This document shows positions 5,048 to 59,234 of a stretch of DNA of 64,000 nt, piece by piece; the stretch's first letter is position 1, and each line of letters starts with the position of its first letter. Position numbers and translations under genes: made by a program. Location of the stretch: assembly GCA_029260035.1 (NCBI GenBank), contig JAJDEA010000222.1, positions 15,249-79,248 of the forward strand, written 5' to 3'. This stretch comes from Phycisphaerae bacterium (GTDB lineage: Bacteria > Planctomycetota > Phycisphaerae > UBA1845). A model generated the notes under the pieces. It worked only from the letters and a program-made list of their open reading frames with translations, was not told the origin of the DNA and did not search any database.

Positions 5048-5285
5048 CACGGGTCTATTCTTGTCGTTGCCTCGGTAGGAATCCGGCCGTCCGCTCGACG
5101 ATCCTCACAGATCGTTTATGCACAGTCCAATTATCCCATCAGGGCTGGTGATTACAAGCAATGGCCAGATAAAGACCATGCATAGGCATAGGAAAAACAC
5201 CTCAAGATCTTCGGTGCTTCCTTTCAGAACAAATGGCGAAACCGCAATGACATCGTCATGAGGCTTGATTTTGAGAAATGTTGTC

Positions 5286-44079: not shown

Positions 44080-46485
44080 CTATTTCTTGAGCGGAAAAAG
44101 TGTCTCAAACATGTCATCCGTTCGATTATTCCAACTGGACCAACCCGTCCCATCGTTCGCCTCACCACCCAGAGTTTCGTAGCCCTTGTCTTGCAGGAGC
44201 CTGTCGAGCTTTCGATTCGTGTCGGCCAGGTCCCAGGCTTCGTGCGGATTTCGCAAGTCATACTTGCCCCAATCAAAGTAGATTTGCAAAGGCTGTTTCT
44301 CCGCAGACTTGAGAGAGGAGTCAAGCTGTGCACGCATCGAGTCAAAAATGAAAGATGATTGAGACCCAACCTTGGCCACGACGTCCGGCTCGCCAAACGC
44401 GCAAAGCAAAGCGGCAGAAGCAGAGAAACCCGCGCCGATGCTTGCCCTCGTATCAGGGGACGCGTGCGTTCGGAAATTCTCATCGATAAAGGGAATCAAC
44501 TCATTCGCAAAAAGCTGTGGATACTTGCCTTTCGTTGCGCTCGGCCTTAGCTCGATAAACACAACAATCACCGGAGCCACAGACTGCCCGATCAAGTTGT
44601 CGAGTGAGGTGACATACATGCCTTTTTCGCGTGCCGCCTTGCCGCCATGAACGAATGCGACGGGGTAGCGGGCATCGCTATCATCGTAACCTGCGGGCAG
44701 ATACACATGGACGGGATACTTCGATTCGAGATGTTCGCTTTCCATCTCGCGCTTTTCTACTCGGCCTCGCCTCGCCGGTTGGGGTTCGCCCAAATGACGG
44801 GCTGGCTTCCACGCGGGCATAGCGACCCACGACATTTCCATCCCATCGCCCCGAAAGGACATCTCCATTTCCTTCCCGTAAACAATCGTTTTCGTTTTTC
44901 TCTCGTTTCGCGGGTCCAGAATTTGATCGTAGTCCTTCAGAAAAACATAATTGGTTCTTGCGTCGGGCTCTAGTTTCATTGAGTAATAGAAAAGATCAGT
45001 TCCCGACACATGCGTCATCGACGTTTCCTGTCTAGCGCCAAAAATATCGCCCGCTACAGCGACATCGTCCGCCTCACCTCGATAAACGAAATGAATGCGA
45101 TCGCTCCCTTCGATGATGGGGAACTGCTTTTGTGAAGCTATGAATCGATCGACGACCGCCTTCTTGTCCGAAGCTTTTTCAACCGTCGCGAGGAATTGGC
45201 CGAACTTATAGCTTGACAAGTCTTCGGCTACTGCGACGGCGGGCGTACCCGAAACGCTTCCTGACTGAATATCTATGCGCGCGATTTCACCCATACTTCG
45301 AGTGAAAATGCTGCCTTTTGCAAAACTGGGCGGCGACCACGAAAGATCGCTGAATACTTCTGCGTGAGCCAATTCTTTGTATCCATCAGGGCTTGCCTTG
45401 GCGATGTGTACACCACCCTCTTTCGTTTGAATTACAAGGTGTTGATCTACCAGGATGAGGAAACCATCGCCAGGTTGCCGTGACCGCCAGACACTTTTTC
45501 CCGTCTCCGCGTCTACGCAGGTTAGAAATCGGCTGCTGTACGCATAAACGTAGCCGTCGTGGTATACGGGCACATTGTAGCTGTTCTTGATGGAACGGTC
45601 GGTCCACACCGTTTTCACGTCAACGGCGCTTTCCGTTGGCGTGACGGTCACAATTGTCGATTCGTCGTCTTTGTAGGCCAGGAACAGGCGGTTCTTACCT
45701 GCCGGCACTGGGGTTGCGCTGCCAACGCCGCGTGCTCCACCTCCGCCGTGCTCATGTTCCCAGAGAATCTCGCCGGTACGCGGGCTTAGACCAACTATCT
45801 TCTTATCTCCAACTGCCAAGACATAGGCACCAAGACGATCCATACGGTACGGGATTGGCGACTGATACTGAACGGAATCTTCACACGCCTGCCACACGCG
45901 CTCGCCCGTCGTCATATTGAATCCCGCGACCGATCCTTTTTCCGCCCCCATTTGCACGATAAGCATATTGTCCATAATGATGGGGGATGTCGTGAAGCCG
46001 TAATGAGGTTTCTTTGCTTCATGGTCGTCAACGAGTTCGGTCGACCAGGTTTCCTTTCCCGATTTGGCATCAAGAGCAACCAGTCTCCCTCGCGGCGCAA
46101 GCGCGAAAACCTGCCCCGAACTACTCACCGCTGGCGTCGAGATCGGGCCGGTGTGGGAGCCGTCATGGCCTTTGTATGTTTCGCCCAGAACATAGCGCCA
46201 TTTCTCTGCACCCGTTTCTTCATCAAACGCAATCACGACATCCTCCTTACCATCGGAGAACATGGTTACAACAAGGCCGTTGGCCACAGCTACACCTGAA
46301 TAGCCGCTGCCTATCGTTTTCTTCCATTTGATTTTCAAACCAAACCCGTCAGAGTGGGCTAGCGCGGAGGAAGTTGGATAGATGCCATCTCCGTTAGGCC
46401 CGCGAAACGCTGGCCAATCGGATGGACTGGATGCGAACGTATTCGATGACAATAGACATGCTGTCGCAACCAGTAACATCCTCAT
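44080..46485 (-). CDS. secreted PQQ-like beta-propeller fused to a C-terminal esterase (enterochelin-esterase/esterase-D-like) domain
   Basis: Signal peptide MRMLLVATACLLSSNTFASS (ATG 46485; the longest ORF starts at GTG 46518). Repeated propeller motifs are VIAFDEETGAEKWRY, LVALDAKSGKETWS, GFNMTTGERVWQ, GLSPRTGEILWEH and LTCVDAETGKSVWR. The C-terminal esterase blocks are YPVAFVHGG and IGAGFSASAAL. Confidence 0.8.
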   Translation of the reverse strand: MRMLLVATACLLSSNTFASSPSDWPAFRGPNGDGIYPTSSALAHSDGFGLKIKWKKTIGSGYSGVAVANGLVVTMFSDGKEDVVIAFDEETGAEKWRYVLGETYKGHDGSHTGPISTPAVSSSGQVFALAPRGRLVALDAKSGKETWSTELVDDHEAKKPHYGFTTSPIIMDNMLIVQMGAEKGSVAGFNMTTGERVWQACEDSVQYQSPIPYRMDRLGAYVLAVGDKKIVGLSPRTGEILWEHEHGGGGARGVGSATPVPAGKNRLFLAYKDDESTIVTVTPTESAVDVKTVWTDRSIKNSYNVPVYHDGYVYAYSSRFLTCVDAETGKSVWRSRQPGDGFLILVDQHLVIQTKEGGVHIAKASPDGYKELAHAEVFSDLSWSPPSFAKGSIFTRSMGEIARIDIQSGSVSGTPAVAVAEDLSSYKFGQFLATVEKASDKKAVVDRFIASQKQFPIIEGSDRIHFVYRGEADDVAVAGDIFGARQETSMTHVSGTDLFYYSMKLEPDARTNYVFLKDYDQILDPRNERKTKTIVYGKEMEMSFRGDGMEMSWVAMPAWKPARHLGEPQPARRGRVEKREMESEHLESKYPVHVYLPAGYDDSDARYPVAFVHGGKAAREKGMYVTSLDNLIGQSVAPVIVVFIELRPSATKGKYPQLFANELIPFIDENFRTHASPDTRASIGAGFSASAALLCAFGEPDVVAKVGSQSSFIFDSMRAQLDSSLKSAEKQPLQIYFDWGKYDLRNPHEAWDLADTNRKLDRLLQDKGYETLGGEANDGTGWSSWNNRTDDMFETLFPLKK

Positions 46486-46742
46486 TTGAGCAATGATTGT
46501 TGGCCTAATCGTTGACACTTGCTGTTCTCCTCAAAGTAAGACATTGTTAATTGAAAACTGAGATGCGATTCCTCTCGGCCCGATTTGCCGGGATGCGTTG
46601 GCCGCATAGGCCAAAACGTACCCAAACACTCCGGGTTTTTCAATAGTCGTGTAAGTTTCGACAATTGCCAATACAATTCGCATCTCGGTTGGAGCTTCGG
46701 ACAATCCGGGCTAGGGTGGTTCTCGGAAAGGAAACGTTTGGA

Positions 46743-47423
46743 ATGAAACACCAGGACGAAACAGGCGGCAGTTCACCGGATAGCGGAGCGACTCTTCGAA
46801 CCAAGGTACGCCAAGTGTCAAAAAGAGGCGCGTACGATCGAGAGACGGTTTATCGTATCATCGACGAGTCGCTGGTTTGTCACGTTGGGTTTGTTGATGA
46901 TGGCCAGCCTTACGTTGTACCGACGCTTCATGTTCGCTTGGGCGATGTTCTTTATTTTCATGGCTCGCGGAAGAGCAGGATGCTTCGAATCATGGAAAAG
47001 GGGGCTCCTGTGTGTGCGACCATGACACTCCTGGATGGGCTGGTTTTGGCTCGGTCAGCGTTTCATCATTCCGTAAACTACAGATCCGTCATGGTTTTTG
47101 GCAAGGGTTCGCCGATCGAAGACGCTGCTGAAAAGCTGAGCATCCTGGATGCGTTGGTTGAACACGTCATCAAGGGTAGATCGGATGATGCACGCCCGCC
47201 AACAAAAAACGAGCTGGCCGGAACGCATGTCGTCGCGTTGCCGATCACGGAAGCATCAGCCAAATTGCGCGAAGGGCCACCAGTTGACGACGATGCCGAT
47301 TACGCATTGCCTGTTTGGGCGGGCGTTTTGCCAATGCGTATGAAGACGGGCGAACCAATTGCAGATCCAAAATTGGCTGAAAACATCGCCTTGCCCAACT
47401 ATTTGCGTGCATATTCGCGATGA
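46743..47423 (+). CDS. pyridoxamine 5'-phosphate oxidase-like FMN-binding family protein
   Basis: Split-barrel pattern (RGAYDRETVYRIIDESLVCHVGFVDDGQPYVVPTLHVRLGDVLYFHGS). The start is set at ATG 46743. Confidence 0.7.
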   Translation: MKHQDETGGSSPDSGATLRTKVRQVSKRGAYDRETVYRIIDESLVCHVGFVDDGQPYVVPTLHVRLGDVLYFHGSRKSRMLRIMEKGAPVCATMTLLDGLVLARSAFHHSVNYRSVMVFGKGSPIEDAAEKLSILDALVEHVIKGRSDDARPPTKNELAGTHVVALPITEASAKLREGPPVDDDADYALPVWAGVLPMRMKTGEPIADPKLAENIALPNYLRAYSR

Positions 47424-47528
47424 CGCAAATCTCGCCTACGGTTTGACCGACGGGTGCGGCCGTCGTTAAACTGCGATCAATACAATGAATAAAAAGAATC
47501 GCGCGTCTTAACCCCGGAGGAAACAGCC

Positions 47529-48053
47529 ATGTCCAATGTCAATGCTTTTAGTCTGAAAGGTTGGATCGACGAACATCGCCATTTGCTCAAGCCGCCGGTA
47601 GGCAATCAGCAGGTCTACGAAGATACGGACTTCATTATCATGATCGTTGGCGGCCCCAATGTTCGGAAAGATTACCACATCAATCCGACTGAAGAGTTTT
47701 TCTATCAGCTCGAGGGTGACGTATCCGTCGGAATTATTGAAGATGGCGAGAAGCGAACGATTCCAATTCGAGAAGGGGAAATCCTCTTGCTTCCGCCTAT
47801 GATTCCCCATTCACCACAAAGACCGGCTAATACCGTAGGCATGGTCGTCGAGCGCCGCAGACCCAAAGGGCAAATGGACCACCTAAGGTATTACTGCGAG
47901 AAATGCGACGAAATTCTTTACGATCCACAGTTCTATCTCACGAACATCGTAAAGCAGCTCAAGCCTTTGATGGACACGTTTTGGAATGACGCATCCCTCC
48001 AAACATGTAAGAAGTGTGGCACTATCATGGAACCACCAGTCGCGGCGACATAG
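47529..48053 (+). CDS. nbaC: 3-hydroxyanthranilate 3,4-dioxygenase
   Basis: Cupin with the characteristic N-terminus (WIDEHRHLLKPPVGNQ...GGPNVRKDYHINPTEEFFYQLEGD), metal ligands (H...E...H) and a C-terminal rubredoxin-like CEKCDE...CKKCG. GGAGGA lies upstream of the ATG. Confidence 0.9.
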   Translation: MSNVNAFSLKGWIDEHRHLLKPPVGNQQVYEDTDFIIMIVGGPNVRKDYHINPTEEFFYQLEGDVSVGIIEDGEKRTIPIREGEILLLPPMIPHSPQRPANTVGMVVERRRPKGQMDHLRYYCEKCDEILYDPQFYLTNIVKQLKPLMDTFWNDASLQTCKKCGTIMEPPVAAT

Positions 48054-48122
48054 CTAGCGCGAACTTCACATTCTACATGTTTGATTGATTCAAAATTGGA
48101 CAATCGTTAAGGCTAACGGCTT

Positions 48123-49136
48123 GTGTTTAAGATAGACATCCACACGCACATTCTTCCTGAAAATTGGCCCGACCTGCGCGAGCGCTACGGGTACGGCGGG
48201 TTCATTCGCCTTGAACACCACAAGCCATGTTGCGCACGCATGTTCAAGGACGACGAATTTTTTCGTGAGATACAGGACAATTGCTGGTCGCCGACGCGTC
48301 GGATCGAAGAGTGCGACGGCGCCGGTGTTCACGTACAAGTGCTTTCGACGGTACCCGTCATGTTCAGCTATTGGGCGAAACCGGACGACGCCCACGATCT
48401 GGCGAAATTATTGAACGATCATATTGCCGAAGTCGTTCGTCAATACCCAAAACGGTTTGTCGGGCTTGCCACGATTCCCATGCAATCACCCAAGCTCGCG
48501 ATTCAGGAGATGGAACGCTGCGTCAACGAACTTGGACTCTCCGGCGTGCAAATCGGCACGCACGTCAATGGCTGTAATCTGGACGACGATAAGATATTCC
48601 CCATTCTCCAAGCTGCCGAACAGTTGGGCGCTGCGGTGTTCGTGCATCCGTGGGATATGCTAGCTAAAGATCGCATGTCAAAATATTGGCATAGTTGGCT
48701 TGTCGGTATGCCGGCTGAAACCGCCCTCGCGATCAGTTCGCTAATGTTTGCGGGCGTATTCGATAAACTACCCAAGCTGCGCATCTGTTTCGCTCATGGC
48801 GGCGGCTCATTTCCGGGCACGATTGGACGATTGCAGCATGGTTTCGACGTTAGGCCTGACTTGTGCGCAACTGACACGAAAACGTCCCCTCGCGATTGGA
48901 TGGGGCGTTTTTATGTGGATTCATTGGTCCATGATTCGGATGCTCTGGCTTATCTGGTGAAACTCGTGGGAAAGGAAAAAGTAGCGCTTGGATCGGATTA
49001 TCCGTTCCCATTGGGCGAGGCTGTACCCGGCAAGCTGATCGAATCGATGGAAAAGTTCTCAGCAGAAACGAAGCAAAGGCTGTTAGCCGGGTCGGCTATG
49101 GAGTTTCTCGATCTCGATCAAAATCGGTTTCTGTAG
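48123..49136 (+). CDS. 2-amino-3-carboxymuconate-6-semialdehyde decarboxylase (amidohydrolase_2 family)
   Basis: [16 protein letters not shown]-terminus with [15 protein letters not shown] and [13 protein letters not shown] start at 48123. Confidence 0.85.
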
Positions 49137-49169
49137 GATTCAATCTGCTACGTTCGGGCCGAGCTTTTT

Positions 49170-50486
49170 ATGACGACAAACCATACTAACTCTCCCGCTG
49201 ACTCTGACGTTTCTTTTCGCGAAGACGAGGCGTTTGCGATCAAGCTGGATGCGGATGATCCGTTGGCTCACTATCGCGCTCAGTTTCACATTCCGAAACA
49301 ATCAAACGGGGAAGACGTAATTTACTTTGCCGGGAACTCGCTGGGATTACAACCTCGAACCGTTCGGGATTTAATTGGCCAGGAATTGACTGATTGGGCT
49401 AAACTCGGCGTGGACGGGCATTTCGATAGCACCAGGCCTTGGTACTCATATCATGAGATTTTTCGCGATACGGGCGCGAGGCTGGTTGGCGCAAAGCCCG
49501 GCGAAGTCGTCATGATGAACAGCCTGACGATCAATCTGCACCTTATGATGACGACGTTTTTCCGCCCAACGAAAGAACGATTCAAGATCATGATGCAGTC
49601 GCCAGCATTTCCGTCGGACACATACGCCGTGAAGTCGCAGCTTGCCTTTCATGGATTGGACCCTGCAGAGGCGCTAATCATCCTGAAGCCTCGCGAAGAT
49701 GAGCACACGATTCGACTTGAAGATATTGAGCAAACGCTAGCCGAACAGGGCGATAAGATTGCACTTGTCCTTTTTGAAGGAGTCAATTATTTCACGGGTC
49801 AACTCTTCGAAATAGAAAAGATAACGAATCTGGTAAAGCAACATGGATGCGTCATGGGCTGGGATTTGGCGCACGCAGCTGGCAATGTGCCACTTAAATT
49901 GCACCAATGGGACGTCGATTTCGCTGTATGGTGCAATTACAAATATCTTAACGCCGGCCCTGGCGCCGTGGCGGGTTGTTTCGTTCACGAAAAAAATAGC
50001 AAGAACCTGGACCTGCATCGGCTGGCGGGTTGGTGGGGGAACGACCCCAACACACGTTTCCGAATGCACCTTCAGCCTGAATTCGTTCCGCGTCCGGGAG
50101 CAGAGGGCTGGCAGGTAAGCAATCCACCCATTCTCGCGTTAGCGCCAGTAAAAGCATCCATCGATATCTTTGATGAAGTGGGTATGTCGCCACTCCGGCA
50201 GAAATCAACTCAAATGACTGACTACCTGGCATATCTGATTGGCCTGCTTTCAGCCAATCGATTCGAGATCATCACGCCACAGCCAGCAAGTGTTCGAGGG
50301 TGCCAGCTTTCGATCCTGGCCCATGAACGGCCAAGAGAGCTGCACAACGCATTGAATTCAAAGGGTGTTGTATGCGATTTTCGTGAACCAAATGTCATCC
50401 GCGTGGCTCCAGTTCCACTATACAACACATACCACGACGCATGGCGCTTCGCACAGGTATTGGCAAGGCATGTAGAGGCGGGGTAG
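49170..50486 (+). CDS. kynU: kynureninase
   Basis: 438 aa, PLP fold type I, with the conserved blocks IYFAGNSLGLQP, WDLAHAAGN and the PLP-Lys region WCNYKYLNAGPG. Confidence 0.9.
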   Translation: MTTNHTNSPADSDVSFREDEAFAIKLDADDPLAHYRAQFHIPKQSNGEDVIYFAGNSLGLQPRTVRDLIGQELTDWAKLGVDGHFDSTRPWYSYHEIFRDTGARLVGAKPGEVVMMNSLTINLHLMMTTFFRPTKERFKIMMQSPAFPSDTYAVKSQLAFHGLDPAEALIILKPREDEHTIRLEDIEQTLAEQGDKIALVLFEGVNYFTGQLFEIEKITNLVKQHGCVMGWDLAHAAGNVPLKLHQWDVDFAVWCNYKYLNAGPGAVAGCFVHEKNSKNLDLHRLAGWWGNDPNTRFRMHLQPEFVPRPGAEGWQVSNPPILALAPVKASIDIFDEVGMSPLRQKSTQMTDYLAYLIGLLSANRFEIITPQPASVRGCQLSILAHERPRELHNALNSKGVVCDFREPNVIRVAPVPLYNTYHDAWRFAQVLARHVEAG

Positions 50487-50507
50487 GGTCGGTGACTCTC
50501 GGCGTAC

Positions 50508-52655
50508 CTATTCTCGCATCAGTCGATTGACAAACCGTGCAAGTCGCCTCGCGACGCGTTTGGCAACTGGTACGGCTCCACCTTGAAGCAAAACAGAGCC
50601 AGTCATGCCATGGCGAAGGTCGGAAGATTGGGCATCGGGCAGTTCGATAACGATCTCAAAATATGGCTCCGCCGCTTCGTGCGTGTTGGGATCCACTACG
50701 ATATGGCCGCCCGCCAATTGCGTGAGGGATGTCAAACGCACCGTGCGTGACCCGGCTGGGGAAACACTGACTACAATGCCCTCGTATATGTTTGTCGTAT
50801 TCGCTACTGTTCGGAACTTGGCGAAACCACCAATTGTTGGCTTGCTTTGGACATATTGATCTTCCGTAAGAAAAGCATGAACCTGCCAAGTGCCTGATGC
50901 AATCGTCGCAATGGGGTCACCCTCGTTAAGGTAAAGCCCTCGATCTTGCGGCTTCAAGCTGCTGATAATTCTACCTTCGCAAGGTGATTGCACAGCAAGG
51001 TTATCCAGTTTCAATTGGCTGTCTTTCAGGGCTTTTTCCCAGGAATTCGCCCGGTACGCTTCCTGTTGCGCCCTTTCCGGTTCGGTGCCGCGAAAGGCAT
51101 CTCGTCGAATCTGTGTCGCACGAAGATTGGCGCGTGCAAAAGCCACGTCTTGCTTAAGCGTGTCGTTACTGAGCGTCACCAAGGTTTGATCGATACTCGC
51201 ATCATCGCCGAATTGGGACGAAACACCTTCCACAAAGCCCGGCACTTTTGTACGAACGATTGTTTCATTCTCAGTCGTCAACCTTCCGCTGGCGTGAACG
51301 CGCGATGGCAAAGGCACAAATGTCAACAAGCAAGGCACGATAAGGAGGGCAACTACTCCTAACGCGATCGCTCTTTTTCGCACATGCGCGGTTTCCTCCG
51401 CGCGCCACAGGTAACCAATCGTTCTACGCAGCGTCGAAATCACCGTACTTCCGAAATAGAACACCGCCAATGACATACCCAGCAAGAACATTTTGGACGC
51501 CAGGATCGCCGAAATGGCGATCAGCAAAGAGATGCGATAAAGGAAAGCACAGATACCAAAGGAGAGTAGGAGCCAACGGAGTCTCCGGCTGGCGATTTCC
51601 GGCCCGGAGCGAATCCCGAGGAGCCATCGTTTCGCCTTAGCAGTTACATACTGGGCTGATTTTGCGCGAAGATTGGGAACCTCTGTCAAATCGCTAAGTA
51701 TATAGTAACCGTCGTAGCGCATGAGCGGGTTGATGTTGAATAGGACAGTGATGATGCTAGCCAGGAAGATGACGTTGTAGGCTATGCTGTTGACCAATGA
51801 TGGGCCTGTGAACGCCCAAACCAACACCGCCATAGCAGCAGTAAAACTCTCGAAATACATTCCGCCGAAACAGACGATCAAACGATCGAGCTTGCGCGAA
51901 AACCCCCACGAAGCGGTCGCATCCATATATGCGCACGGGGTAAACATGATTAGGTACGCGCCCATTTCGGGCACATGTCCGCCATATTTCTTGCACGCAT
52001 ACGCATGGCCGAACTCGTGGAAGACTTTGAGTGCGATAAGCGTAATCCACATGAGTGCCAGATTTTGACTGGCCATGATACCATGCAACGGTTCGGAGAG
52101 TTCGTGCCATCGCCTAAACGCAACGAAGCCTGCGACACACATCAACATTAGCCAACAGATGAAAGCTGGCCTAGTGAACAATGGCCTTGCGTACTGAATA
52201 GTGCGGTCCAAAAACGCGTTTGGATTCCAAAGTGGAATGCGTATGAAGAGAAACCCCAGGAACTTTTGCTTTCGGCTGGCGCGTTCTCGGGCGCGATAGC
52301 GCTTGTATAGAAGCTTGTGATCTGAAATTGGCAAATGAAGAAGACCAAGCTTGTGAAGGCCCATCACGAACCGATAAAACTTCTCTTCGTCGGTCTCGCG
52401 TAGGATCTTCTTGTCAACGAGGTTTTGAAAATTTTGGCTCAGCGGTTTGTGATCATTTATATTGATCAATACTTGGTAGTTCGCGGGATCGAGACGCTGA
52501 CTTTCAAACGTCACCGGATCGCGAACGATGTAGGATGGCTCACCTCGAAAAACATGACGGCTAACCTCCAGGTCTTCGCGCAGCTTGACCTGAACCGACC
52601 CAAGTTGGCTGGCGAGAGATGAAGCGGCGGGCGAATTGGCGGCACTTACGGCCAT
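50508..52655 (-). CDS. site-2-protease (peptidase M50) family membrane metalloprotease fused to a C-terminal HlyD/MFP-like periplasmic domain
   Basis: Both S2P signatures are present: HEFGHA (HExxH, in a TM helix) and NINPLMRYDGYY (NxxPxxxxDG). Several further TM helices are followed by a ~280-aa barrel/lipoyl-like adaptor domain (GRIISSLKPQDRGLYLNEGDPIATI, GIVVSVSPAG). The start overlaps the upstream gene by 10 nt. Confidence 0.85.
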   Translation of the reverse strand: MAVSAANSPAASSLASQLGSVQVKLREDLEVSRHVFRGEPSYIVRDPVTFESQRLDPANYQVLININDHKPLSQNFQNLVDKKILRETDEEKFYRFVMGLHKLGLLHLPISDHKLLYKRYRARERASRKQKFLGFLFIRIPLWNPNAFLDRTIQYARPLFTRPAFICWLMLMCVAGFVAFRRWHELSEPLHGIMASQNLALMWITLIALKVFHEFGHAYACKKYGGHVPEMGAYLIMFTPCAYMDATASWGFSRKLDRLIVCFGGMYFESFTAAMAVLVWAFTGPSLVNSIAYNVIFLASIITVLFNINPLMRYDGYYILSDLTEVPNLRAKSAQYVTAKAKRWLLGIRSGPEIASRRLRWLLLSFGICAFLYRISLLIAISAILASKMFLLGMSLAVFYFGSTVISTLRRTIGYLWRAEETAHVRKRAIALGVVALLIVPCLLTFVPLPSRVHASGRLTTENETIVRTKVPGFVEGVSSQFGDDASIDQTLVTLSNDTLKQDVAFARANLRATQIRRDAFRGTEPERAQQEAYRANSWEKALKDSQLKLDNLAVQSPCEGRIISSLKPQDRGLYLNEGDPIATIASGTWQVHAFLTEDQYVQSKPTIGGFAKFRTVANTTNIYEGIVVSVSPAGSRTVRLTSLTQLAGGHIVVDPNTHEAAEPYFEIVIELPDAQSSDLRHGMTGSVLLQGGAVPVAKRVARRLARFVNRLMRE

Positions 52656-54589
52656 AGGTGCAACCTGATATAGTCAATTGCCCGGTGTAAGGTGATCCAC
52701 CAGACTCGGCGAGATCCCAATTCGAGTTTCGCTACACCCTCCATACCCGGTCGAAGCCAATCTTGCTCAGCGACGACATCCGCTTCCGCGATATAGACGT
52801 TGATTCCGTTGCGAATTTGAGCCTCGCCGAGAACGCGCGACATACTAAATGGCGTACTTAGCTCCGGTTTAGCAAATGCGGCGAAGCGGCCCGTAAGCTT
52901 CTCGTGCAAGTCCGCAGAACTATGTTCTGGAACCTGCACCTCTAGCGTCCAATGGTCAAGCGGTGCGACGGCAAAGAGCGTCTCGCCTCGCGCAACAACG
53001 CCGCCAATCCGCTGGCGAAGGTCGCCCGTGACGACAACACCGGCAATCGGCGAACGCACCGTAGCCTGCGCGATGCGCCGAGTGACTATATCGAGTTTCG
53101 CCTGAGTAAGAACTTGCTTGGCTCTGGCAAGTTGAACATCGATCGGTAAGTTCGAGGCTAATGCTCGATCCGTTTCTCGCTCCAATACCGCCAGCTCGGC
53201 TTGAAGTTCCACCTGTTGCTGATCCAGTTCTTTGTGATTCAACAGGCACAAAACCTGGCCCGCTTGAACGACTTCGCCTTCGACAATCGAAGCGGACTCA
53301 ACAAGGCCATCGAAAGGCATCGTAAGTTGCCGCAACTGGTGCGGCGTGACGACACATGGAACAGTCAATTCATAATTCATCGACCCGAAGAAGAAGCTTG
53401 CGGTCATAAGAAGCGCAACCGCAACCATGACTTTCAATCCCACGCGATCCGGATGTCTAACCAATGTCGCAAATCGCTTGATTCCGTCCGTAGCATGAGT
53501 GAGAAAGCTTCGACTGGCGCGCCGTGTTAGTTCCAGTGCAGGCGCGTAAGGCTCTACTTTGCTCTTGATATCGTCGAGTTGTCCTGGTTTGAATGGATCA
53601 CTCGCCGGGCGACGAAGGCTTAGAACAGCTATCGTGTGACCGTCTACCGCAAGCGGCATCGACGCGACCGCATCACCATGCGACGCAGAGTGCCATTGTT
53701 TGTGCAGGCGATAGCCGGATAACTTCTCGTCTGTCGCCCAATCGGTTCCCCGCTGATAGGTAATGAGAGCGCTCGCATCGAGGCATTCTTCCATAGCACC
53801 TCGAATCGCGGACACGCCCGGACTCTGCGATTTCACATTGTCAAACCCAGAGATAGAAATTATCCGAATTCTCTTACCCTGAACCAGCCCGAGGGCGACT
53901 TGCTCGCATTGGGCCTTTGTACAAAGATCGTTCGTCAGAGCAAACGCTAATTCTTCCACGGTCGTAAAGGACGCGGCGCGTGACAGTGTCCGGTGGTCGG
54001 TCTGACTGCCAGACGCACGACCTCCTGGTGAATTAGCGCTTGCCGTCGGTTGCGATCGTCCGAGGAACTCGGCACTAAACGACATGAGTCGCGCCAAACT
54101 TTCCAGTTGGTCAAGTTGACGACCCAGCTTGGCTTCATTCGTCGGAGCAATGACAAGCGCAACCGCACCGATTGCCGGGCCGGACGAATCGAAAACCGTA
54201 GCTGACAGGAACGCGACTTTCGTCGCTCCTGTCTTGGATTTGAGCAACTTCGCTCTGGATGTAGGCTCGGCCAGGGATTCCGTCAAGAACTGTTGTAAGC
54301 TGTTCTTCCAAAACTTCGGATCCGTCGGACCAGCGTGCCAATCGTCTTGAATGACCTCGGAAGCGTATCGCACATGCATCGCCGCGTACGGGCATACAAA
54401 GTGCTTGGCTATTACTTTCAGGCACGATTGAAGGAACTGAATGGGTGATACGCTCTTGCGCGCAAGAGAAACGATTTCGGCGTAAGAAGCTCCCTCACGC
54501 TGGGAGTCCGAAGCACTCGTCGAATTCTTGGATGACGATTTTTCCAACTTCGTTTGCACGGATCGTGTCACCTTCCAATCAAAGCCCAA
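52646..54589 (-). CDS. GAF-GAF-TM-HlyD/MFP fusion protein
   Basis: Two cytoplasmic GAF-like modules (~residues 50-175 and 200-350) are followed by one TM helix (VGLKVMVAVALLMTASFFFG). Then comes an MFP domain with a coiled-coil hairpin (QQQVELQAELAVLERETDRALA...LARAKQVLTQAKLDIV) and lipoyl/barrel segments (VRSPIAGVVVTGD). The apparent start is non-ATG (TTG 54589; alternatives GTG 54571 and 54559). Confidence 0.8.
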   Translation of the reverse strand: MGFDWKVTRSVQTKLEKSSSKNSTSASDSQREGASYAEIVSLARKSVSPIQFLQSCLKVIAKHFVCPYAAMHVRYASEVIQDDWHAGPTDPKFWKNSLQQFLTESLAEPTSRAKLLKSKTGATKVAFLSATVFDSSGPAIGAVALVIAPTNEAKLGRQLDQLESLARLMSFSAEFLGRSQPTASANSPGGRASGSQTDHRTLSRAASFTTVEELAFALTNDLCTKAQCEQVALGLVQGKRIRIISISGFDNVKSQSPGVSAIRGAMEECLDASALITYQRGTDWATDEKLSGYRLHKQWHSASHGDAVASMPLAVDGHTIAVLSLRRPASDPFKPGQLDDIKSKVEPYAPALELTRRASRSFLTHATDGIKRFATLVRHPDRVGLKVMVAVALLMTASFFFGSMNYELTVPCVVTPHQLRQLTMPFDGLVESASIVEGEVVQAGQVLCLLNHKELDQQQVELQAELAVLERETDRALASNLPIDVQLARAKQVLTQAKLDIVTRRIAQATVRSPIAGVVVTGDLRQRIGGVVARGETLFAVAPLDHWTLEVQVPEHSSADLHEKLTGRFAAFAKPELSTPFSMSRVLGEAQIRNGINVYIAEADVVAEQDWLRPGMEGVAKLELGSRRVWWITLHRAIDYIRLHLWP

Positions 54590-54597
54590 GTTCAGAG

Positions 54598-55029
54598 CTA
54601 TGACAAAATGCCGGATTCCTGTTCGGTCTGTACATTCTCTGGTAGACAGATCGGCTTGAAAAACGCGAAGCCGGCTTCAAATGCGTCTTCGCGAACAAGC
54701 CTGCATCGGACACACCGTGCAAAAGTCAAGGGTAATGCGAACGAGCTTTTGTCAAATTGCAAACGGAAAATATCACCAACTCCGACGGGAATCGGGAAAA
54801 GTCCGCTACAACCTCCTTGAGAAATGTCGCCCGTGACGCCTTGAACTTTGAACTTCAACATCTCGCTCGAATTACCGGCTTGCAGTACAACGCTGATCTT
54901 GATGGCTAATCGAAAGTGCGCGCGCTGTTGCCGAACTTCTTCCGCGGTGTTCTTACCAAGCTCTTGGAGAAGGTCAAAAGCCGAATCCGCATCAAGAGAT
55001 GTGTTAGGATTTTGAAAATCATCAAACAT
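54598..55029 (-). CDS. stand-alone PilZ domain protein (putative c-di-GMP receptor)
   Basis: Both PilZ signatures are intact: RAHFR (RxxxR) and DISQGG (D/NxSxxG), ~30 residues apart. 143 aa. It lies 5 nt and 8 nt from the flanking MFP genes. Confidence 0.8.
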   Translation of the reverse strand: MFDDFQNPNTSLDADSAFDLLQELGKNTAEEVRQQRAHFRLAIKISVVLQAGNSSEMLKFKVQGVTGDISQGGCSGLFPIPVGVGDIFRLQFDKSSFALPLTFARCVRCRLVREDAFEAGFAFFKPICLPENVQTEQESGILS

Positions 55030-55034
55030 TTCGT

Positions 55035-56036
55035 TTACTCACGATACCCTTTTGACTCATCTTTAGAATCTGTTGGACTACTCTTATGCTGCTGATTGGT
55101 TTGCTGTGCTTCAATGACACGAGACGACAAGTGGTCTCTCTCGCTTACACCTTGCTGAAAATCTACATATACCTTTAGACCGGCTATCCAACGGTCATCC
55201 CTATTGGGTATGGCTAGCTTCACGTTGAACGTTTGACTCGCCCCATCTGCAACCCGGTTAACCAACACAACTTCACCGGCACGGGTTTTCCAGCCTGAGC
55301 TGACTGGATTCACGCTGAGTATGTTTCCTGCGTGGATTTGAGTAGCAAGTGTCAATGGGCAGGCAAATGACACCACAAGCGGGTCGAGCTGAGCCACACG
55401 AACGACGCCTTCTCCTTGTTCGACGGGCTCGCCTTCTTCTTTGAAGACTTCAGCCACATAACCTGAAAAGGGGGCAGAGACAAGGTATTCCGCGAGCGCA
55501 TGCTGCTCACGTTGATAGATCCAGGAATCTACCGTATGGCGAAAATTGGCGAGGTCATATTCGATCTTGTTGATATCGCGTGCAGCAAGGGCGTCACTCA
55601 ATTCCTTGGACGAAGCAGAATCTCCGCCGTAAAGTTTCTCAAGCCGATCCCAATCACGCCTGGCCCGTTCCCATTTCGTCTTGGCCAGTTCAATAGCGAG
55701 CGTTGATTCTGCTACCGTTTTTGCTTTCTCAGTTTGGGCGCGCTGCACACGATCATCAAGAACGAATAGGATCTGCCCCTTTTCTATGCTGTCGCCTTCT
55801 TCGACGGCGATGTGGCTGATAAGCGTGGGTCTCGCCGCACCCAGCATCGCTTCACGAACAGGCATCGTAAGCCCGAAAACTCTGACCGCGGAATTCGACG
55901 CAGGCGTGGCGGTAACCGCTTGCTGAGCAGATGATGTTGATTCTCCGATTACAACGAAAGAGAGAATCAACACGACATACTGCCAGGCAATAGGTATCTT
56001 ACAGGTTGCTTTCTTGACGCGGGTTCCGTTCCGCAT
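55035..56036 (-). CDS. HlyD/RND-type membrane fusion (periplasmic adaptor) protein
   Basis: N-terminal TM/signal anchor, a lipoyl-like motif (ISHIAVEEGDSIEKGQILFVLD...VSAPFSGYVAEVFKEEGEPVEQGEGVVRV), a coiled-coil hairpin and a beta-barrel domain. Confidence 0.8.
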   Translation of the reverse strand: MRNGTRVKKATCKIPIAWQYVVLILSFVVIGESTSSAQQAVTATPASNSAVRVFGLTMPVREAMLGAARPTLISHIAVEEGDSIEKGQILFVLDDRVQRAQTEKAKTVAESTLAIELAKTKWERARRDWDRLEKLYGGDSASSKELSDALAARDINKIEYDLANFRHTVDSWIYQREQHALAEYLVSAPFSGYVAEVFKEEGEPVEQGEGVVRVAQLDPLVVSFACPLTLATQIHAGNILSVNPVSSGWKTRAGEVVLVNRVADGASQTFNVKLAIPNRDDRWIAGLKVYVDFQQGVSERDHLSSRVIEAQQTNQQHKSSPTDSKDESKGYRE

Positions 56037-56082
56037 GAGTCATCCGCTTGACAAATACTGCGCAAGAGTTCCGATAAATGAA

Positions 56083-56099
56083 GGCGCATTTTGCGCGCC
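56083..56099 (-). terminator. weak hairpin in the 127-nt gap between the large secreted-protein gene and the MFP gene (possible attenuator/partial terminator)
   Basis: On the minus strand the sequence reads GGCGC-GCAAAAT-GCGCC followed by TTCATTTAT. The stem is only 5 bp. Confidence 0.25.
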
Positions 56100-56163
56100 C
56101 TCCTCTCGATCTTGTCGGCAGTTCATACAGGCGAATTGAAAGCATCTCGTGCCGCCGTTTTGG

Positions 56164-58698
56164 TTAACGATCCTTGCTTCCTCGGCCACCTTCATGCGTC
56201 CGATCTTGTTTTTCGCTACGAGCGCCAAGGCCACGAATTGCGCTCCAAAGCCCTGCAAAAAACCCGCTGGATGCGCCTGCGCTTGCAACCATCGTATCGT
56301 CAGTCGATTCGCCATCGGTTTCATCCCAACGATCGACTTCGAACTCGTTATGGGTCTCAACCTCTGATTCGTTATCCCGATTGAATCCGCGATCGGCGTA
56401 TTCAACTTTTCCGGACGAAGTCTCTGACGTATCGGACTCGTTTCCGTTTGATTCATCCGCCGAGTCGGAAGCAGCAAAGGCCGCCTCGAGATTGTCACTG
56501 TGAACGCCGCTCGCAATTTCATGAAAGACGTCCGGCACCTCAAGACCCGCATCGCCATTGGCCAAGAAGCTAACATCATTACTATCTTCCTGGTCCATGT
56601 CCGATGAATAAGCGATTTCCTGCTGCGTATCGTATTCCGTCTCAACCGTATCTGCTAACGGAGTAGCGGACGACGTTTCGGCTACGTCCGCAAGAAAATC
56701 AGATTCAGCTCGCGCCACGTCGACTGTATCCGAAACTTCCTCCAACGGATTCATGACACCAAGCTCTTCGGAACCATCCCAAACAACTTCATCACCTTTG
56801 TCGGAATGCCCCGCCCCACTGCCGCCACCAGACTCATTGCTTTGCGACCCTGCTGTACTTCCCGTCGTTGCCACAGGTACATCGACGACCGGCGAAGAAG
56901 GAGTGGTGTCGGTTGACCCATGCTGAGCCGATCCGCCATCACCTTCAACTGACTCGACGACAGCAACGGGTGTTTGAACGACCGGCGTCACATCTGCGAC
57001 GCTTTCCGTCGGCTCTGGCGGCGCTATCACATCGGACGCCGATTCATCGGCTCCCGATCCACCAGACTCACTCACAGTCACATCGTCAACATCCTTCGCA
57101 ACAGCGGAGGCATCTTCACTCTCGACGTCGTCAGGCGTAGGTGTTGCTACGGGAGCAGGTGCACTTGGCGCCGGAGTGGATGCAGGCGCAGTCGGCGCGC
57201 TCGCAGCCACATTGACCGTAACCGTCTCGGTCGCGGTGTTACCATTGCCGTCATCGACGGTGTAGGTGAAGGAATCGCTGCCGTTGAAGTTGGCATTTGG
57301 CGTATACGAGAACGTGCCATCGCCGTTGTCAGCAACCGTGCCGTTACTAGCTTGAGTAAAGCTGGCAACGGACAGGGTATCGCCATCTGGGTCGCTGTCA
57401 TTGGTCAACACATTGCCCGTCGTAACCGCCGTGTCTTCGGTAGTTGAGAATGTATCGGCCGCAGCTGTTGGTCCATCATTTACCGCAGCCACATTGACCG
57501 TAACCGTCTCGGTCGCGGTGTTACCGTTGCCGTCATCGACGGTGTAGGTGAAGGAATCGCTACCGTTGAAGTTGGCATTTGGCGCATAAGAGAACGTGCC
57601 ATCGCCGTTGTCAGCAACCGTACCGTTACTTGCCTGCGTAAAGCTGGCAACGGACAGGGTATCGCCATCCGGATCGCTGTCATTGGTCAACACATTTCCC
57701 GTCGTAACCGGCGTGTCCTCGGTAGTTGAGAAAGTGTCGGCAACGGCTGTCGGAGCTGAGTTGGACGCAACGTCATTAACAACAACATTGACCAAATCTG
57801 TATGCTCACCACCATTGCCATCGTCCGCCGTTACCGAGAACGTCAGAGTGGTAGGCCCCGTTACGTCCGGTGCCGTGAACGTAGGCTGGGCGTCGGTGTC
57901 ACTGCTTAGCGTTACCGATGGGCCTTGAACCTGCGTCCAGGCATAAGTTAGCGAATCACTGTTGGCGTCGGCGCTCAGAGACGCATCCAGTGTCACGTTA
58001 CTGCCTTCATCCACCGTTTGGTCAACACCCGCATTGGCGACCGGTGCGACATTCACACTGCCTCCGGAACCACCTCCGGATCCGCCAGAGCTACCCGAGC
58101 CTCCGCCAGAACCACCAGAACTTCCGCTTGAACCTCCACCCGAGCCGCCGGAGCTACCTCCAAAGCCACCGCCTGAACCGCCACCCGATCCGCCAGAACT
58201 ACCCGAGCCTCCGCCAGAACCACCAGAACTTCCGCCTGAACCGCCACCCGATCCGCCAGAACTACCCGAGCCTCCGCCAGAACCACCAGAACTTCCGCCT
58301 GAACCGCCGCCGGAGCTACCTCCAAAGCCACCGCCTGAGCCGCCACCTGATCCACCAGAGCTACCTGAGCTTCCGCCTGATCCACCGCTCGAGCCGCCGA
58401 AGAGCGAGTCATCTCCACTGCCACCGAATAGCTGGTCGTTCGAATCACCACCTGACATTAAGTCGTCATCGCTAAGTCCGTCAGCGCCGTCAGTTCCAGT
58501 AGAGGAGTCGTTTCCTTCGGTGGCTCCGTCTAGCGGATCGCCCGTATCCGCATCCACCCAGGTTGCGGAAAGGAGAATGCGAGGCTCGAGCGCTTCAATA
58601 TCCAACGAAGCAGAATCTGGAGTCTTATTAGACTGGTTTCCCTTCTTCTTACCTGATCCGCTGCGACGTTTTGTTTGCTTGCTCTTTTTCCTGGCCAT
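56164..58698 (-). CDS. large secreted protein: basic N-terminus with LEPRILLSA motif, ~115-aa Gly/Ser linker, PKD/Ig-like domain, two cadherin-like tandem ~94-aa repeats, acidic tail and C-terminal hydrophobic/basic segment
   Basis: 844 aa. The N-terminus is MARKKSKQTKRRSGSGKKKG...IEALEPRILLSATW. It is followed by a (G/S)n tract, then VNVAPVANAGVDQTVDEGSNVTLDASLS...LTYAWTQVQGPSVTLS (PKD-like). Next come 2x ADTFSTTEDT.VTTGNVLTNDSDPDGDTLSV...GSDSFTYTVDDGNGNTATETVTVNV. A D/E/S/T-rich region ends in GFFAGLWSAIRGLGARSEKQDRTHEGGRGSKDR. Confidence 0.85.
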   Translation of the reverse strand: MARKKSKQTKRRSGSGKKKGNQSNKTPDSASLDIEALEPRILLSATWVDADTGDPLDGATEGNDSSTGTDGADGLSDDDLMSGGDSNDQLFGGSGDDSLFGGSSGGSGGSSGSSGGSGGGSGGGFGGSSGGGSGGSSGGSGGGSGSSGGSGGGSGGSSGGSGGGSGSSGGSGGGSGGGFGGSSGGSGGGSSGSSGGSGGGSGSSGGSGGGSGGSVNVAPVANAGVDQTVDEGSNVTLDASLSADANSDSLTYAWTQVQGPSVTLSSDTDAQPTFTAPDVTGPTTLTFSVTADDGNGGEHTDLVNVVVNDVASNSAPTAVADTFSTTEDTPVTTGNVLTNDSDPDGDTLSVASFTQASNGTVADNGDGTFSYAPNANFNGSDSFTYTVDDGNGNTATETVTVNVAAVNDGPTAAADTFSTTEDTAVTTGNVLTNDSDPDGDTLSVASFTQASNGTVADNGDGTFSYTPNANFNGSDSFTYTVDDGNGNTATETVTVNVAASAPTAPASTPAPSAPAPVATPTPDDVESEDASAVAKDVDDVTVSESGGSGADESASDVIAPPEPTESVADVTPVVQTPVAVVESVEGDGGSAQHGSTDTTPSSPVVDVPVATTGSTAGSQSNESGGGSGAGHSDKGDEVVWDGSEELGVMNPLEEVSDTVDVARAESDFLADVAETSSATPLADTVETEYDTQQEIAYSSDMDQEDSNDVSFLANGDAGLEVPDVFHEIASGVHSDNLEAAFAASDSADESNGNESDTSETSSGKVEYADRGFNRDNESEVETHNEFEVDRWDETDGESTDDTMVASAGASSGFFAGLWSAIRGLGARSEKQDRTHEGGRGSKDR
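57203..57766. repeat. near-identical 282-bp tandem duplication (2 copies) encoding the cadherin-like modules
   Basis: gcagccacattgaccgtaaccgtctcggtcgcggtgttacc... starts at 57203 and again at 57485. About 250 bp of each copy differ by only a handful of substitutions. Confidence 0.85.
58058..58400. repeat. imperfect tandem repeat with ~63-bp period encoding the Gly/Ser linker
   Basis: gcctgaaccgccacccgatccgccagaactacccgagcctccgccagaaccaccagaacttcc recurs at 58171, 58234 and 58297. The flanking units are degenerate. Confidence 0.8.
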
Positions 58699-58730
58699 AA
58701 CGATTCCCTTTCCGTTTATTCAACTGGAAC

Positions 58731-59234
58731 TTATGCTGCCGACAGAATGGTTTCGACGGTGAGGTTGTCCCAGCGTTCGATTCTGTGAAGAAACCTTTCG
58801 AGTGGGACTCGATGCGTTCCTCGGCTTAGCAACACAAGCTTTTGTGCCCAATTCCTTAGTGCTTCTCTGTTTGCTTTCTTATCATCCAAGAGACGCCGAA
58901 TCTCCCGCCACCAGGGCGTTTCCGGCTCTTTGAAGTTGATCTGATAACCATGATCGAGCGCAAGCGTAACATATGCACCAGTTGTAGCGCATGGGCTGTT
59001 GTCGCTATCTACGACAATGGGACTTGCATTGTTTTGGATTGCCCGCTTGATACGCTCATAGTTCCAGCGTCGTGCCGATGGCAGTAGTTTAGCGGACCAA
59101 TCGTATCGAGCCGGGTTGTCTCCGGCTTGGGTATAAAAGAATTCGTCGAACTCGATGTGAATCCCGCCATCGATCACAAGTTGTCGGCTGGCGAAGGATT
59201 TTCCGCAACTCGGAAGCCCCCGCATGAGAATCAT
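58731..59234 (-). CDS. P-loop NTPase/kinase (AAA_33-like)
   Basis: Walker A GLPSCGKSF sits right after the start MILMRG (ATG 59234; the longest ORF extends to 59441), with VVDSDN as a Walker-B-like motif. 167 aa. It lies 32 nt upstream of the large secreted-protein gene on the same strand. Confidence 0.65.
   Translation of the reverse strand: MILMRGLPSCGKSFASRQLVIDGGIHIEFDEFFYTQAGDNPARYDWSAKLLPSARRWNYERIKRAIQNNASPIVVDSDNSPCATTGAYVTLALDHGYQINFKEPETPWWREIRRLLDDKKANREALRNWAQKLVLLSRGTHRVPLERFLHRIERWDNLTVETILSAA

Follow-up and report, generated by a model that had tools for sequence, protein, structure and literature searches.

An RRE-type domain, an intramembrane M50 protease and a periplasmic adaptor in one protein, encoded beside a LEPR-XLL giant protein in Planctomycetota

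A single gene in a 64,000-nucleotide stretch of contig JAJDEA010000222.1 (hereafter, the window), from a Phycisphaerae bacterium of the Planctomycetota, encodes a 715-aa protein in which an intramembrane metalloprotease of the M50 (site-2-protease, S2P) type is covalently joined to a C-terminal membrane fusion protein (MFP, periplasmic adaptor) domain, behind a predicted cytoplasmic N-domain resembling the recognition elements (RREs) of ribosomally made, post-translationally modified peptide (RiPP) pathways. The joining of protease and adaptor, which had been put forward from the letters of the window alone (the sequence-only reading), holds by sequence, by profile comparison and by predicted structure. 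We further propose, as a reading for which the arguments are evenly balanced, that the protein is the leader-recognizing protease and inner-membrane subunit of an envelope-spanning apparatus with three MFP-type proteins, handling the neighboring giant protein under the control of cyclic di-GMP (c-di-GMP). The features of the protein are as follows; TM stands for transmembrane, ORF for open reading frame and AF2 for AlphaFold2.

50508..52655, (-): RRE-M50-MFP fusion protein, 715 aa (ORF, translation, homologues, AF2)
52347..52598, (-): RRE/PqqD-like, putative leader-peptide-binding domain, aa ~20-103, presumably cytoplasmic (AF2, Foldseek, family profile)
51321..52226, (-): M50 (S2P-type) membrane core with seven predicted TM helices, aa ~144-445 (hydropathy, AF2, Pfam, NCBIfam)
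52008..52022, (-): HExxH zinc-binding/catalytic motif, H212 E213 F G H216 (invariant in homologues)
51711..51740, (-): NxxPxxxxDG motif, N306...P309...D314 G315, with the third zinc ligand of S2P-type enzymes (invariant in homologues)
50571..51317, (-): periplasmic MFP/adaptor domain, aa ~447-695, with lipoyl half-domains, a short alpha-hairpin and a beta-barrel (PDB profile, Foldseek, TIGR01730)

ORF calling and translation gave one uninterrupted frame with an ATG start on the minus strand, a strand that the sequence-only reading does not state, and its product contains all three peptides quoted in the sequence-only reading, and the NCBI assembly of the source carries an identical 715-aa annotated product together with the 143-, 333- and 844-aa neighbors described below. 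The full-length AF2 model, built on 60 homologues, has a mean predicted local distance difference test (pLDDT) score of 85.1. A word-indexed search returned more than 1,130 matches, the best 120 of which are all ~711-735 aa long, with 97-100% query cover and 45-56% identity, and in an exhaustive HMMER scan of 1.84 billion cluster representatives 11,775 proteins passed E<=1e-3, of which 4,015 also passed E<=1e-30. Among the best 150 of these 4,015 representatives nearly all are full-length, at identities down to 33%, and a one-genome-per-species scan found full-length homologues in at least 587 species, most of them Planctomycetota. At 26-31% identity, full-length matches extend to Verrucomicrobiota, Brocadiaceae, Fibrobacter, Spirochaetales and Proteobacteria (Bradyrhizobium, Rhizobacter, Limnohabitans, Burkholderiaceae and Paracoccaceae). 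A mis-assembly or frameshift of two genes confined to this genome, a danger to which the sequence-only reading had itself pointed, is ruled out by this conservation across genomes.

The annotations of the homologues are generic ("HlyD family efflux transporter periplasmic adaptor subunit", "biotin/lipoyl-binding protein", "putative peptide zinc metalloprotease protein"). Neither Pfam nor NCBIfam, both of which were searched, holds a dedicated model for this architecture, and the 715-aa protein stays under the curated thresholds of all the specific families tested (daptide, YydH/LiaK, TIGR01730 and Pfam M50). No description of the architecture or of the gene module around it was found in the literature searched (open-access papers and bioRxiv, where absence is no proof of novelty), which yielded a general review of RiPP proteases and two passing mentions of LEPR-XLL. 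At the protein level, the architecture builds on known kinds of parts (RiPP-type M50, RRE, MFP) and is itself without a curated family.

Both signatures of an M50 active site are in place. The HEFGH sequence (aa 212-216) lies inside predicted helix 198-222, HExxH within a TM helix being expected of M50 enzymes, and the second motif is complete (N306, P309, D314, G315), including the Asp zinc ligand. The two motifs are invariant in the 60 aligned homologues and present in 79 of 79 complete homologues from other genomes; a degenerate pseudo-protease was ruled out by this invariance. Both are expected to lie toward the cytoplasmic ends of their helices, the position they have in known S2P structures. 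The Pfam model Peptidase_M50 (PF02163) scored 21.6 bits against a gathering score of 27.2 (E 1.5e-4, aa 204-283 only) and so missed its threshold, and some homologues do carry PF02163 in precomputed annotation; on these scores, the protein appears to be a divergent M50 relative that falls outside the family as Pfam delimits it.

The NCBIfam models point to a particular group of M50 enzymes. The daptide protease model (daptide_HExxH, NF041824) gave 145.7 bits (E 2e-42), below its equivalog cutoff of 300, so that the protein reads as a homologue of the daptide protease and not as its equivalog, and the YydH/LiaK model (NF058609) gave 37.6 bits (E 1.8e-9), below its cutoff of 225. Members of a sister clade, to which we return below, match the daptide model over its full length, with the N-domain, at E 1e-49 to 1e-53. 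Because the daptide model is matched end to end in these distant members and the YydH/LiaK model is matched as well, the RRE and M50 parts together appear to be a relative of RiPP leader peptidases of the daptide and epipeptide types, and not of signaling proteases of the RseP or SpoIVFB type. The sequence-only reading had offered both anti-sigma-factor proteolysis and YydH-type peptide maturation as precedents, and the two NCBIfam matches side with the latter. Classical regulated intramembrane proteolysis, in which the enzyme would cut an anti-sigma factor or another membrane regulator and the MFP domain would act as periplasmic sensor or scaffold, would suit an M50/S2P catalytic core encoded in a module with cytoplasmic signaling domains (PilZ and GAF, see below). 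It is nevertheless highly improbable, as the core groups with the RiPP-type enzymes and the family profile reaches MJ0392 in the PDB only at E 0.026, PDZ or CBS regulatory domains are absent, and the conserved module contains no sigma or anti-sigma gene.

The C-terminal part models as an MFP fold, as the sequence-only reading had claimed. Compared with the PDB, the family profile matched, over aa 450-687, MacA, EmrA, HlyD and an MFP of type I secretion (best E 2.2e-12), and Foldseek aligned the AF2 model with MacA, MexA, AcrA and ZneB (E 8.6e-14 to 1e-11, ~260-280 columns, target-normalized TM-score ~0.6). The order of elements in the AF2 model, together with the Foldseek and profile matches, gives the lipoyl, alpha-hairpin and beta-barrel arrangement of MFPs; the hairpin comprises aa 497-520 and 525-550 (~25 residues per helix), and a basic C-terminal helix spans aa 696-713. 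TIGR01730 scored 34.6 bits on the 715-aa protein (E 1e-8), below its cutoff of 94.9, and none of the Pfam HlyD models matched it at E<=0.01; its homologues carry barrel-sandwich matches (PF25973, PF25917, PF25919). Hydropathy and AF2 agree on seven TM segments that separate the RRE from the MFP domain and, because these segments lie between them, the two domains are predicted to face opposite sides of the membrane, the RRE in the cytoplasm and the MFP domain in the periplasm. MFPs usually form hexamers there, and the oligomeric ring into which the sequence-only reading places the protease would be a conceivable consequence of the fusion.

The N-domain had been described as a cytoplasmic region of ~170 aa reminiscent of small peptide- or ligand-binding domains. 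Its size has to be corrected, since the soluble part comprises ~100 aa followed by a linker helix, with the first TM helix starting at ~aa 160, whereas the likeness is borne out by an affinity of the RRE/PqqD type. In the full-length AF2 model aa 29-101 form a bbb-aaa fold with pLDDT >90, and a separate model of aa 1-135 (pLDDT 86.6) places strands at 30-36, 39-45 and 52-55 and helices at 57-64, 72-81 and 87-102, that is, the three-stranded sheet followed by three helices seen in known RREs. The ten best Foldseek matches of this model in the PDB are all RRE proteins, including a lasso peptide B1 protein (6jx3), the RRE of the sactipeptide enzyme CteB and ThcOx; the best one, TbiB1 with bound leader (5v1v), is covered over its whole 88 aa (E 5e-3, probability 1.00, target-normalized TM-score 0.73). 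Six of 16 aligned N-domains of the family match Pfam PqqD (PF05402; best E 5.3e-8), and the family profile of the N-domain matches the PqqD structure 3g2b in the PDB end to end (E 0.0075). Matches of the same profile to designed TIM barrels were set aside as repeat-driven noise. Because the Foldseek, Pfam PqqD and 3g2b matches agree, we assign the N-domain, as modeled, to the RRE/PqqD-type leader-peptide-binding domains, leader binding itself being predicted. RRE domains characterized to date bind N-terminal leader peptides (PMC10885120).

The protease gene is the last of a conserved module of five genes on the same strand which, from the upstream end, encode a giant LEPR-XLL protein, an MFP, a PilZ protein, a GAF-TM-MFP protein and the RRE-M50-MFP fusion, a setting that the sequence-only reading does not mention. 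The three genes between the giant protein and the protease are listed here.

52646..54589, (-): protein combining a GAF-like cytoplasmic part, a single TM helix and an MFP part, ~641-647 aa (Pfam HlyD_3 and HlyD_D23; family profile)
54598..55029, (-): stand-alone PilZ protein, 143 aa, with RxxxR and DxSxxG motifs (Pfam PilZ, E 4e-9)
55035..56036, (-): conventional single-TM MFP, 333 aa (TIGR01730; Pfam HlyD_D23, HlyD_3 and Biotin_lipoyl_2)

Co-translation inside an operon is suggested, because the start codon of the protease gene shares 10 nt with the stop of the upstream gene (ATGGCCGTAA). A promoter and terminator scan of 50300-59200 returned sites no more numerous than in shuffled sequence. 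Where the GAF-TM-MFP gene starts is uncertain, as its longest ORF opens at TTG 54589 and the homologues align from GTG 54571; its family profile matches MacA (E 1e-19) and the GAF domain of Cph2 (E 3e-4), and homologues show faint GAF matches. The PilZ neighbor scores 37.2 bits with PF07238 (cutoff 22.5) and has both motifs of the family, R36-AHF-R40 and DISQGG. Since the c-di-GMP-binding motifs are retained in 38 of 41 homologues, the protein is a putative c-di-GMP receptor, binding being predicted from these conserved motifs. The 333-aa MFP reaches 109.7 bits with TIGR01730, over the cutoff of 94.9.

For the analysis of synteny, 84 loci, most of them from metagenome-assembled genomes, were fetched, their ORFs called and searched with the five module proteins, which gave 79 complete protease genes. 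A gene of the GAF-TM-MFP type lies directly upstream of the protease in 72 of the 79 loci, a third, short MFP is present in 48 (upstream in some subclades and immediately downstream in others), and a PilZ gene in 40. The genes on either side vary between genomes (SpoIID, topoisomerase, radical SAM, kynureninase), so that the module travels as one block. No inner-membrane pump gene (ABC, RND or MFS) was found in the 84 loci, so the usual partner context of an MFP is lacking, and neither is there the context of a daptide cluster, with its precursors and modifying enzymes, the neighbors being MFPs, PilZ and the giant protein. The search for conserved small ORFs near the modules, as possible RiPP precursors, recovered only shadow frames of SecA-like and flanking genes.

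These data bear on two further explanations. The protein could be a maturation protease and exporter for a small RiPP or bacteriocin-like peptide whose precursor is unrecognized or encoded elsewhere, the giant neighbor being coincidental. Its closest curated relatives are RiPP leader peptidases, the RRE is a hallmark of RiPP systems, and HlyD-type MFPs accompany bacteriocin exporters. We consider this improbable, however, given that neither modifying enzymes nor conserved small ORFs were found in or around at least 80 modules, that the module genes are tightly packed, and that the linkage to the giant protein outlasts changes in gene order (see below). Alternatively, the three MFP-type proteins and the PilZ protein might form the adaptor set of a small-molecule, metal or polysaccharide exporter encoded elsewhere, with the M50 part merely as membrane anchor or quality control, in line with Alg44, a known PilZ-MFP fusion of alginate export (bioRxiv 10.1101/814665). 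This is very improbable, considering the invariance of the catalytic residues across phyla, the presence of a peptide-binding-type RRE, the conserved module without transporter or glycosyltransferase, and the SecA-like protein-translocation ATPase of the sister clade.

The candidate substrate, or cargo, of the apparatus is the product of the first gene of the module.

56164..58698, (-): candidate substrate/cargo, LEPR-XLL protein of 844 aa, in which PKD, Big_9 and cadherin-like domains occur beside RTX-like Gly/Asp repeats (Pfam, NCBIfam)
58552..58605, (-): N-terminal leader-like motif of the cargo, LDIEALEPRILLSATWVD, aa 32-49 (NCBIfam LEPR-XLL)
56224..56265, (-): C-terminal motif of the cargo, GFFAGLWSAIRGLG, aa 812-825, ahead of a polar tail whose end is basic (28 cargos)

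The LEPR-XLL model (NF012209) matches aa 34-45 of the 844-aa protein with 19.4 bits, above its cutoff of 17, and a 30-aa Lys/Arg-rich stretch precedes LDIEALEPRILLSATWVD. A classical hydrophobic signal-peptide core is absent from this N-terminus and from the other cargo N-termini visible on the contigs. The N-terminal motif is kept in all 11 cargos whose N-terminus lies on the contig (11/11), the shared N-terminus consisting of a long Lys/Arg-rich stretch and then h-x-h-E-x-LE-x-R-[IV]-L-[LM]-S-A-T-W-[VIY]-D. At the other end, 28 cargos (the 844-aa protein, those of 26 loci and that of locus L040) share the consensus G-[FLW]-[FLW]-A-x-L-W-G-L-L-R-G-x-x-G, again followed by a polar tail with a basic end. 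This segment has neither the length nor the hydrophobicity of a classical TM anchor; it could serve in secretion as a signal, anchor the protein in the plane of the membrane, or be what a protease cuts.

A large repeat protein (up to >2,600 aa) adjoins the module wherever the contig reaches far enough, and the domains of these adjoining giants are cadherin, PKD, Big_9, RTX-like and Laminin_G. In two subclades (L040, 6603-7856, and L079, near 15184) the cargo gene is found on the downstream side, behind the short MFP, so that adjacency is kept despite a changed gene order. This kept adjacency, together with the shared termini, argues more strongly than any other observation for a functional tie between the giant protein and the module, and makes the giant protein the obvious candidate substrate.

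Which end of the cargo would be processed can be weighed from the same observations. The M50 enzyme might cut the conserved C-terminal amphipathic segment (GFFAGLWSAIRGLG plus basic tail), leaving another role to the LEPR-XLL N-terminus, by analogy with the anchor processing of rhombosortases and exosortases or with the way a type-I-like secretion signal is taken off a C-terminus. Of the conserved cargo features, the C-terminal motif can be observed most widely (28 cases), the RTX-like repeats recall substrates with C-terminal secretion signals, and S2P-type enzymes such as RseP and SpoIVFB cleave membrane-associated helices. Among RiPP-related M50 enzymes, TglG and TmoG act at the C-termini of their substrates (PMC10885120). 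On the other hand, the hydrophobic stretch has only ~14 residues, with an Arg inside and a long polar tail after it, and is no classical TM anchor, characterized RREs bind N-terminal leaders, and the N-terminal cargo motif is at least equally conserved. Cleavage at the C-terminus is thus unlikely.

The homologues with 26-31% identity form the sister clade, in which PilZ is absent and the gene directly after the protease encodes a SecA-like ATPase of ~650 aa. The SecA-like gene occurs in 28 loci and PilZ in 40, with no locus containing both. The genes referred to are given below with their coordinates in the respective loci.

L077:9734-11695, L072:12128-14074, L078:4702-6699, L061:12266-14329 and 24 other loci: SecA-like ATPase genes, each following the M50-MFP gene directly on its downstream side
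L078:34-564 (contig end) and L055:5366-7285: TolC-family outer-membrane channel, at the head of some of the modules of the SecA type, which then run TolC, MFP-type, M50-MFP, SecA-like, MFP

The SecA-like proteins match SecA_DEAD at E 1e-80 to 1e-90, and also SecA_PP_bind and P-loop_SecA, so that a DEAD motor, a preprotein cross-linking domain and a P-loop are present. Against SecA and SecA2 models they score 400-540 bits, under all cutoffs, and align only to the first ~470-610 of the ~760-820 model positions, the C-terminal third being missing. In Rhizobacter the gene order is TolC, a possible GAF-MFP, M50-MFP, SecA-like and MFP, and a family of ~600 aa that includes a TolC-like match is common to five loci. 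Since a translocating motor and an outer-membrane duct adjoin the MFPs and the RRE-protease, the set of SecA-like motor, TolC, three MFP-type proteins and RRE-protease points to the movement of a polypeptide across the whole envelope. Neighbor clustering in this clade revealed no conserved cargo beyond the TolC, MFP and SecA-like genes; in Fibrobacter, a protein of >3,000 aa is encoded immediately upstream. In a locus from Verrucomicrobiae (L070:15199-17538, (-)), five near-identical ORFs of ~114 aa stand in tandem downstream of the SecA-like gene; a tandem-repeat protein gene on the opposite strand probably accounts for them as shadow frames.

Putting these elements together, the proposed apparatus would work as follows. 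The cytoplasmic RRE would capture a leader-like segment of the substrate, most likely the basic-LEPRILLSATWVD N-terminus of the 56164-58698 protein. The M50 active site, open to the cytoplasmic face of the membrane, would then cut this leader-like segment. The fused MFP domain, the GAF-TM-MFP protein and the 333-aa MFP would build, in the periplasm, either a conduit for the exit of the giant protein or a scaffold that holds and releases it, with the PilZ protein (via c-di-GMP) and the GAF region providing cytoplasmic control. Cleavage could be either a constitutive maturation coupled to export, for which EpeP, an M50 enzyme thought to both cleave and export its peptide, would be the parallel (PMC10885120), or the regulated release of a tethered adhesin, analogous to the action of LapG/LapD on LapA. 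Beyond domain identity and synteny, this proposal draws on genomic context and homology, and the structures are single-chain predictions; its inferred part comprises what the substrate is, where and when it is cut, how the subunits oligomerize, the connection to an outer-membrane channel and the source of energy.

Several observations weigh against the proposal. When searched singly, the N-domain of the 715-aa protein has no Pfam PqqD match, and the Foldseek E-values that connect it with RREs are modest (5e-3). The five genes at 50508-58698 encode no ABC, RND or MFS transporter, no ATPase and no outer-membrane channel. In the complete 4.28-Mb genome of a planctomycete (CP070790, 9291-12157 of locus L002), a 45%-identical homologue has only a 237-aa MFP gene directly upstream (4-nt overlap), with a GH42 glycosidase adjoining, and its context includes no PilZ, GAF-MFP or giant protein. 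No LEPR-XLL protein is found within 10 kb of the sister-clade modules, and the assignment of the cargo may therefore hold for the Planctomycetota clade only. The adjacent giant proteins could also be frequent but unrelated neighbors.

A broader proposal, which we hold more tentatively and at less than even confidence, covers both clades. The RRE-M50-MFP protein, the GAF-TM-MFP protein, the short MFP, TolC and either the truncated SecA-like ATPase or PilZ might represent an unrecognized class of trans-envelope secretion or release system, in which LEPR-XLL giants would be recognized via an RRE-bound leader, use an MFP/TolC conduit without an ABC transporter, and be matured, or freed from a tether at the cytoplasmic face, by the M50 enzyme under second-messenger control.

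Other genes of the window were recorded along the way. Downstream of the module, at 46665-50486 (+), lie convergent genes of the kynurenine/NAD-pathway type, encoding a pyridoxamine-phosphate-oxidase-like protein, a 3-hydroxyanthranilate 3,4-dioxygenase, an ACMSD-like amidohydrolase and a kynureninase. Further away are an 812-aa fusion of a PQQ/BamB-like beta-propeller with a C-terminal putative esterase domain (44080-46518, (-)), a 1,017-aa protein, far longer than typical ligases, whose sole recognizable domain is that of an O-antigen ligase (Wzy_C, aa 271-415; 31227-34280, (+)), and a 633-aa ORF unmatched in Pfam at E<=1e-3 (3149-5050, (-)).

On a conservative reading, thousands of entries named "HlyD family efflux transporter periplasmic adaptor subunit" are, judging by their sequences, probably intramembrane proteases with an intact active site and a leader-binding domain. 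The possible implications of the proposed apparatus go further. Planctomycetota, Verrucomicrobiota and their kin have many giant surface proteins with LEPR-XLL N-termini unlike classical signal peptides, for whose export the module is a concrete and testable candidate. If the proposal is right, RRE-type leader recognition would extend from small RiPPs to proteins of thousands of residues, an MFP-based secretion architecture without an ABC, RND or MFS pump would be added to those known, and a c-di-GMP-controlled adhesin system would exist that is mechanistically distinct from LapADG.

Among known systems, the 715-aa protein would work most like a RiPP leader peptidase-exporter, with a periplasmic half that resembles the adaptor of a tripartite pump. 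The daptide (NF041824) and YydH/EpeP/LiaK (NF058609) proteases have a homologous membrane core with the same HExxH and NxxPxxxxDG motifs; however, they are ~250-380 aa long and have no MFP part, whereas the protein described here carries a fused one, and their clusters contain small precursors, modifying enzymes and ABC transporters, whereas its neighborhood contains a giant protein and no RiPP genes. RseP, SpoIVFB and MjS2P share the M50 motifs and the intramembrane active site, but the similarity is marginal, and the 715-aa protein is without PDZ or CBS domains and without an anti-sigma context. On the periplasmic side, MacA, HlyD, EmrA and AcrA/MexA share the lipoyl, alpha-hairpin and beta-barrel fold placed after a TM helix; their single N-terminal TM anchor is replaced here by a seven-TM protease with a cytoplasmic RRE. 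In contrast to these MFPs, the hairpin is short, no membrane-proximal domain is seen, and no ABC, RND or MFS pump is encoded alongside.

The peptidase-containing ABC transporters (PCATs) with their HlyD-type partners are analogous in that a single inner-membrane machine recognizes and cuts a leader at the cytoplasmic face and exports the product by an MFP-linked route. PCATs, however, use a C39 cysteine peptidase, an ABC motor and a separate MFP, whereas the system presented here would combine an M50 protease, an RRE and an MFP in one chain, with a SecA-like ATPase as motor in the sister type and none in the type found in the window; the likeness is one of analogy, not of homology. The LapA/LapG/LapD system offers a second analogy, as it combines a giant repeat/RTX adhesin, a dedicated protease, c-di-GMP input and MFP/TolC-type components, and in both systems the candidate site of cleavage is a conserved segment at the N-terminal end of the adhesin. 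LapG, in turn, is a periplasmic cysteine protease and LapD a receptor of the GGDEF/EAL type, and the system is ABC-dependent; none of these has a homologue in the module. Accessory SecA2 systems devote a SecA paralogue to giant adhesins; compared with SecA2, the SecA-like proteins of the sister clade are ~650 aa long, lack the C-terminal third and have no SecY2 partner, and they are absent from the window. Finally, Alg44 couples PilZ-based c-di-GMP sensing to an MFP within one protein (bioRxiv 10.1101/814665), whereas in the 50508-58698 module PilZ is a separate 143-aa protein.

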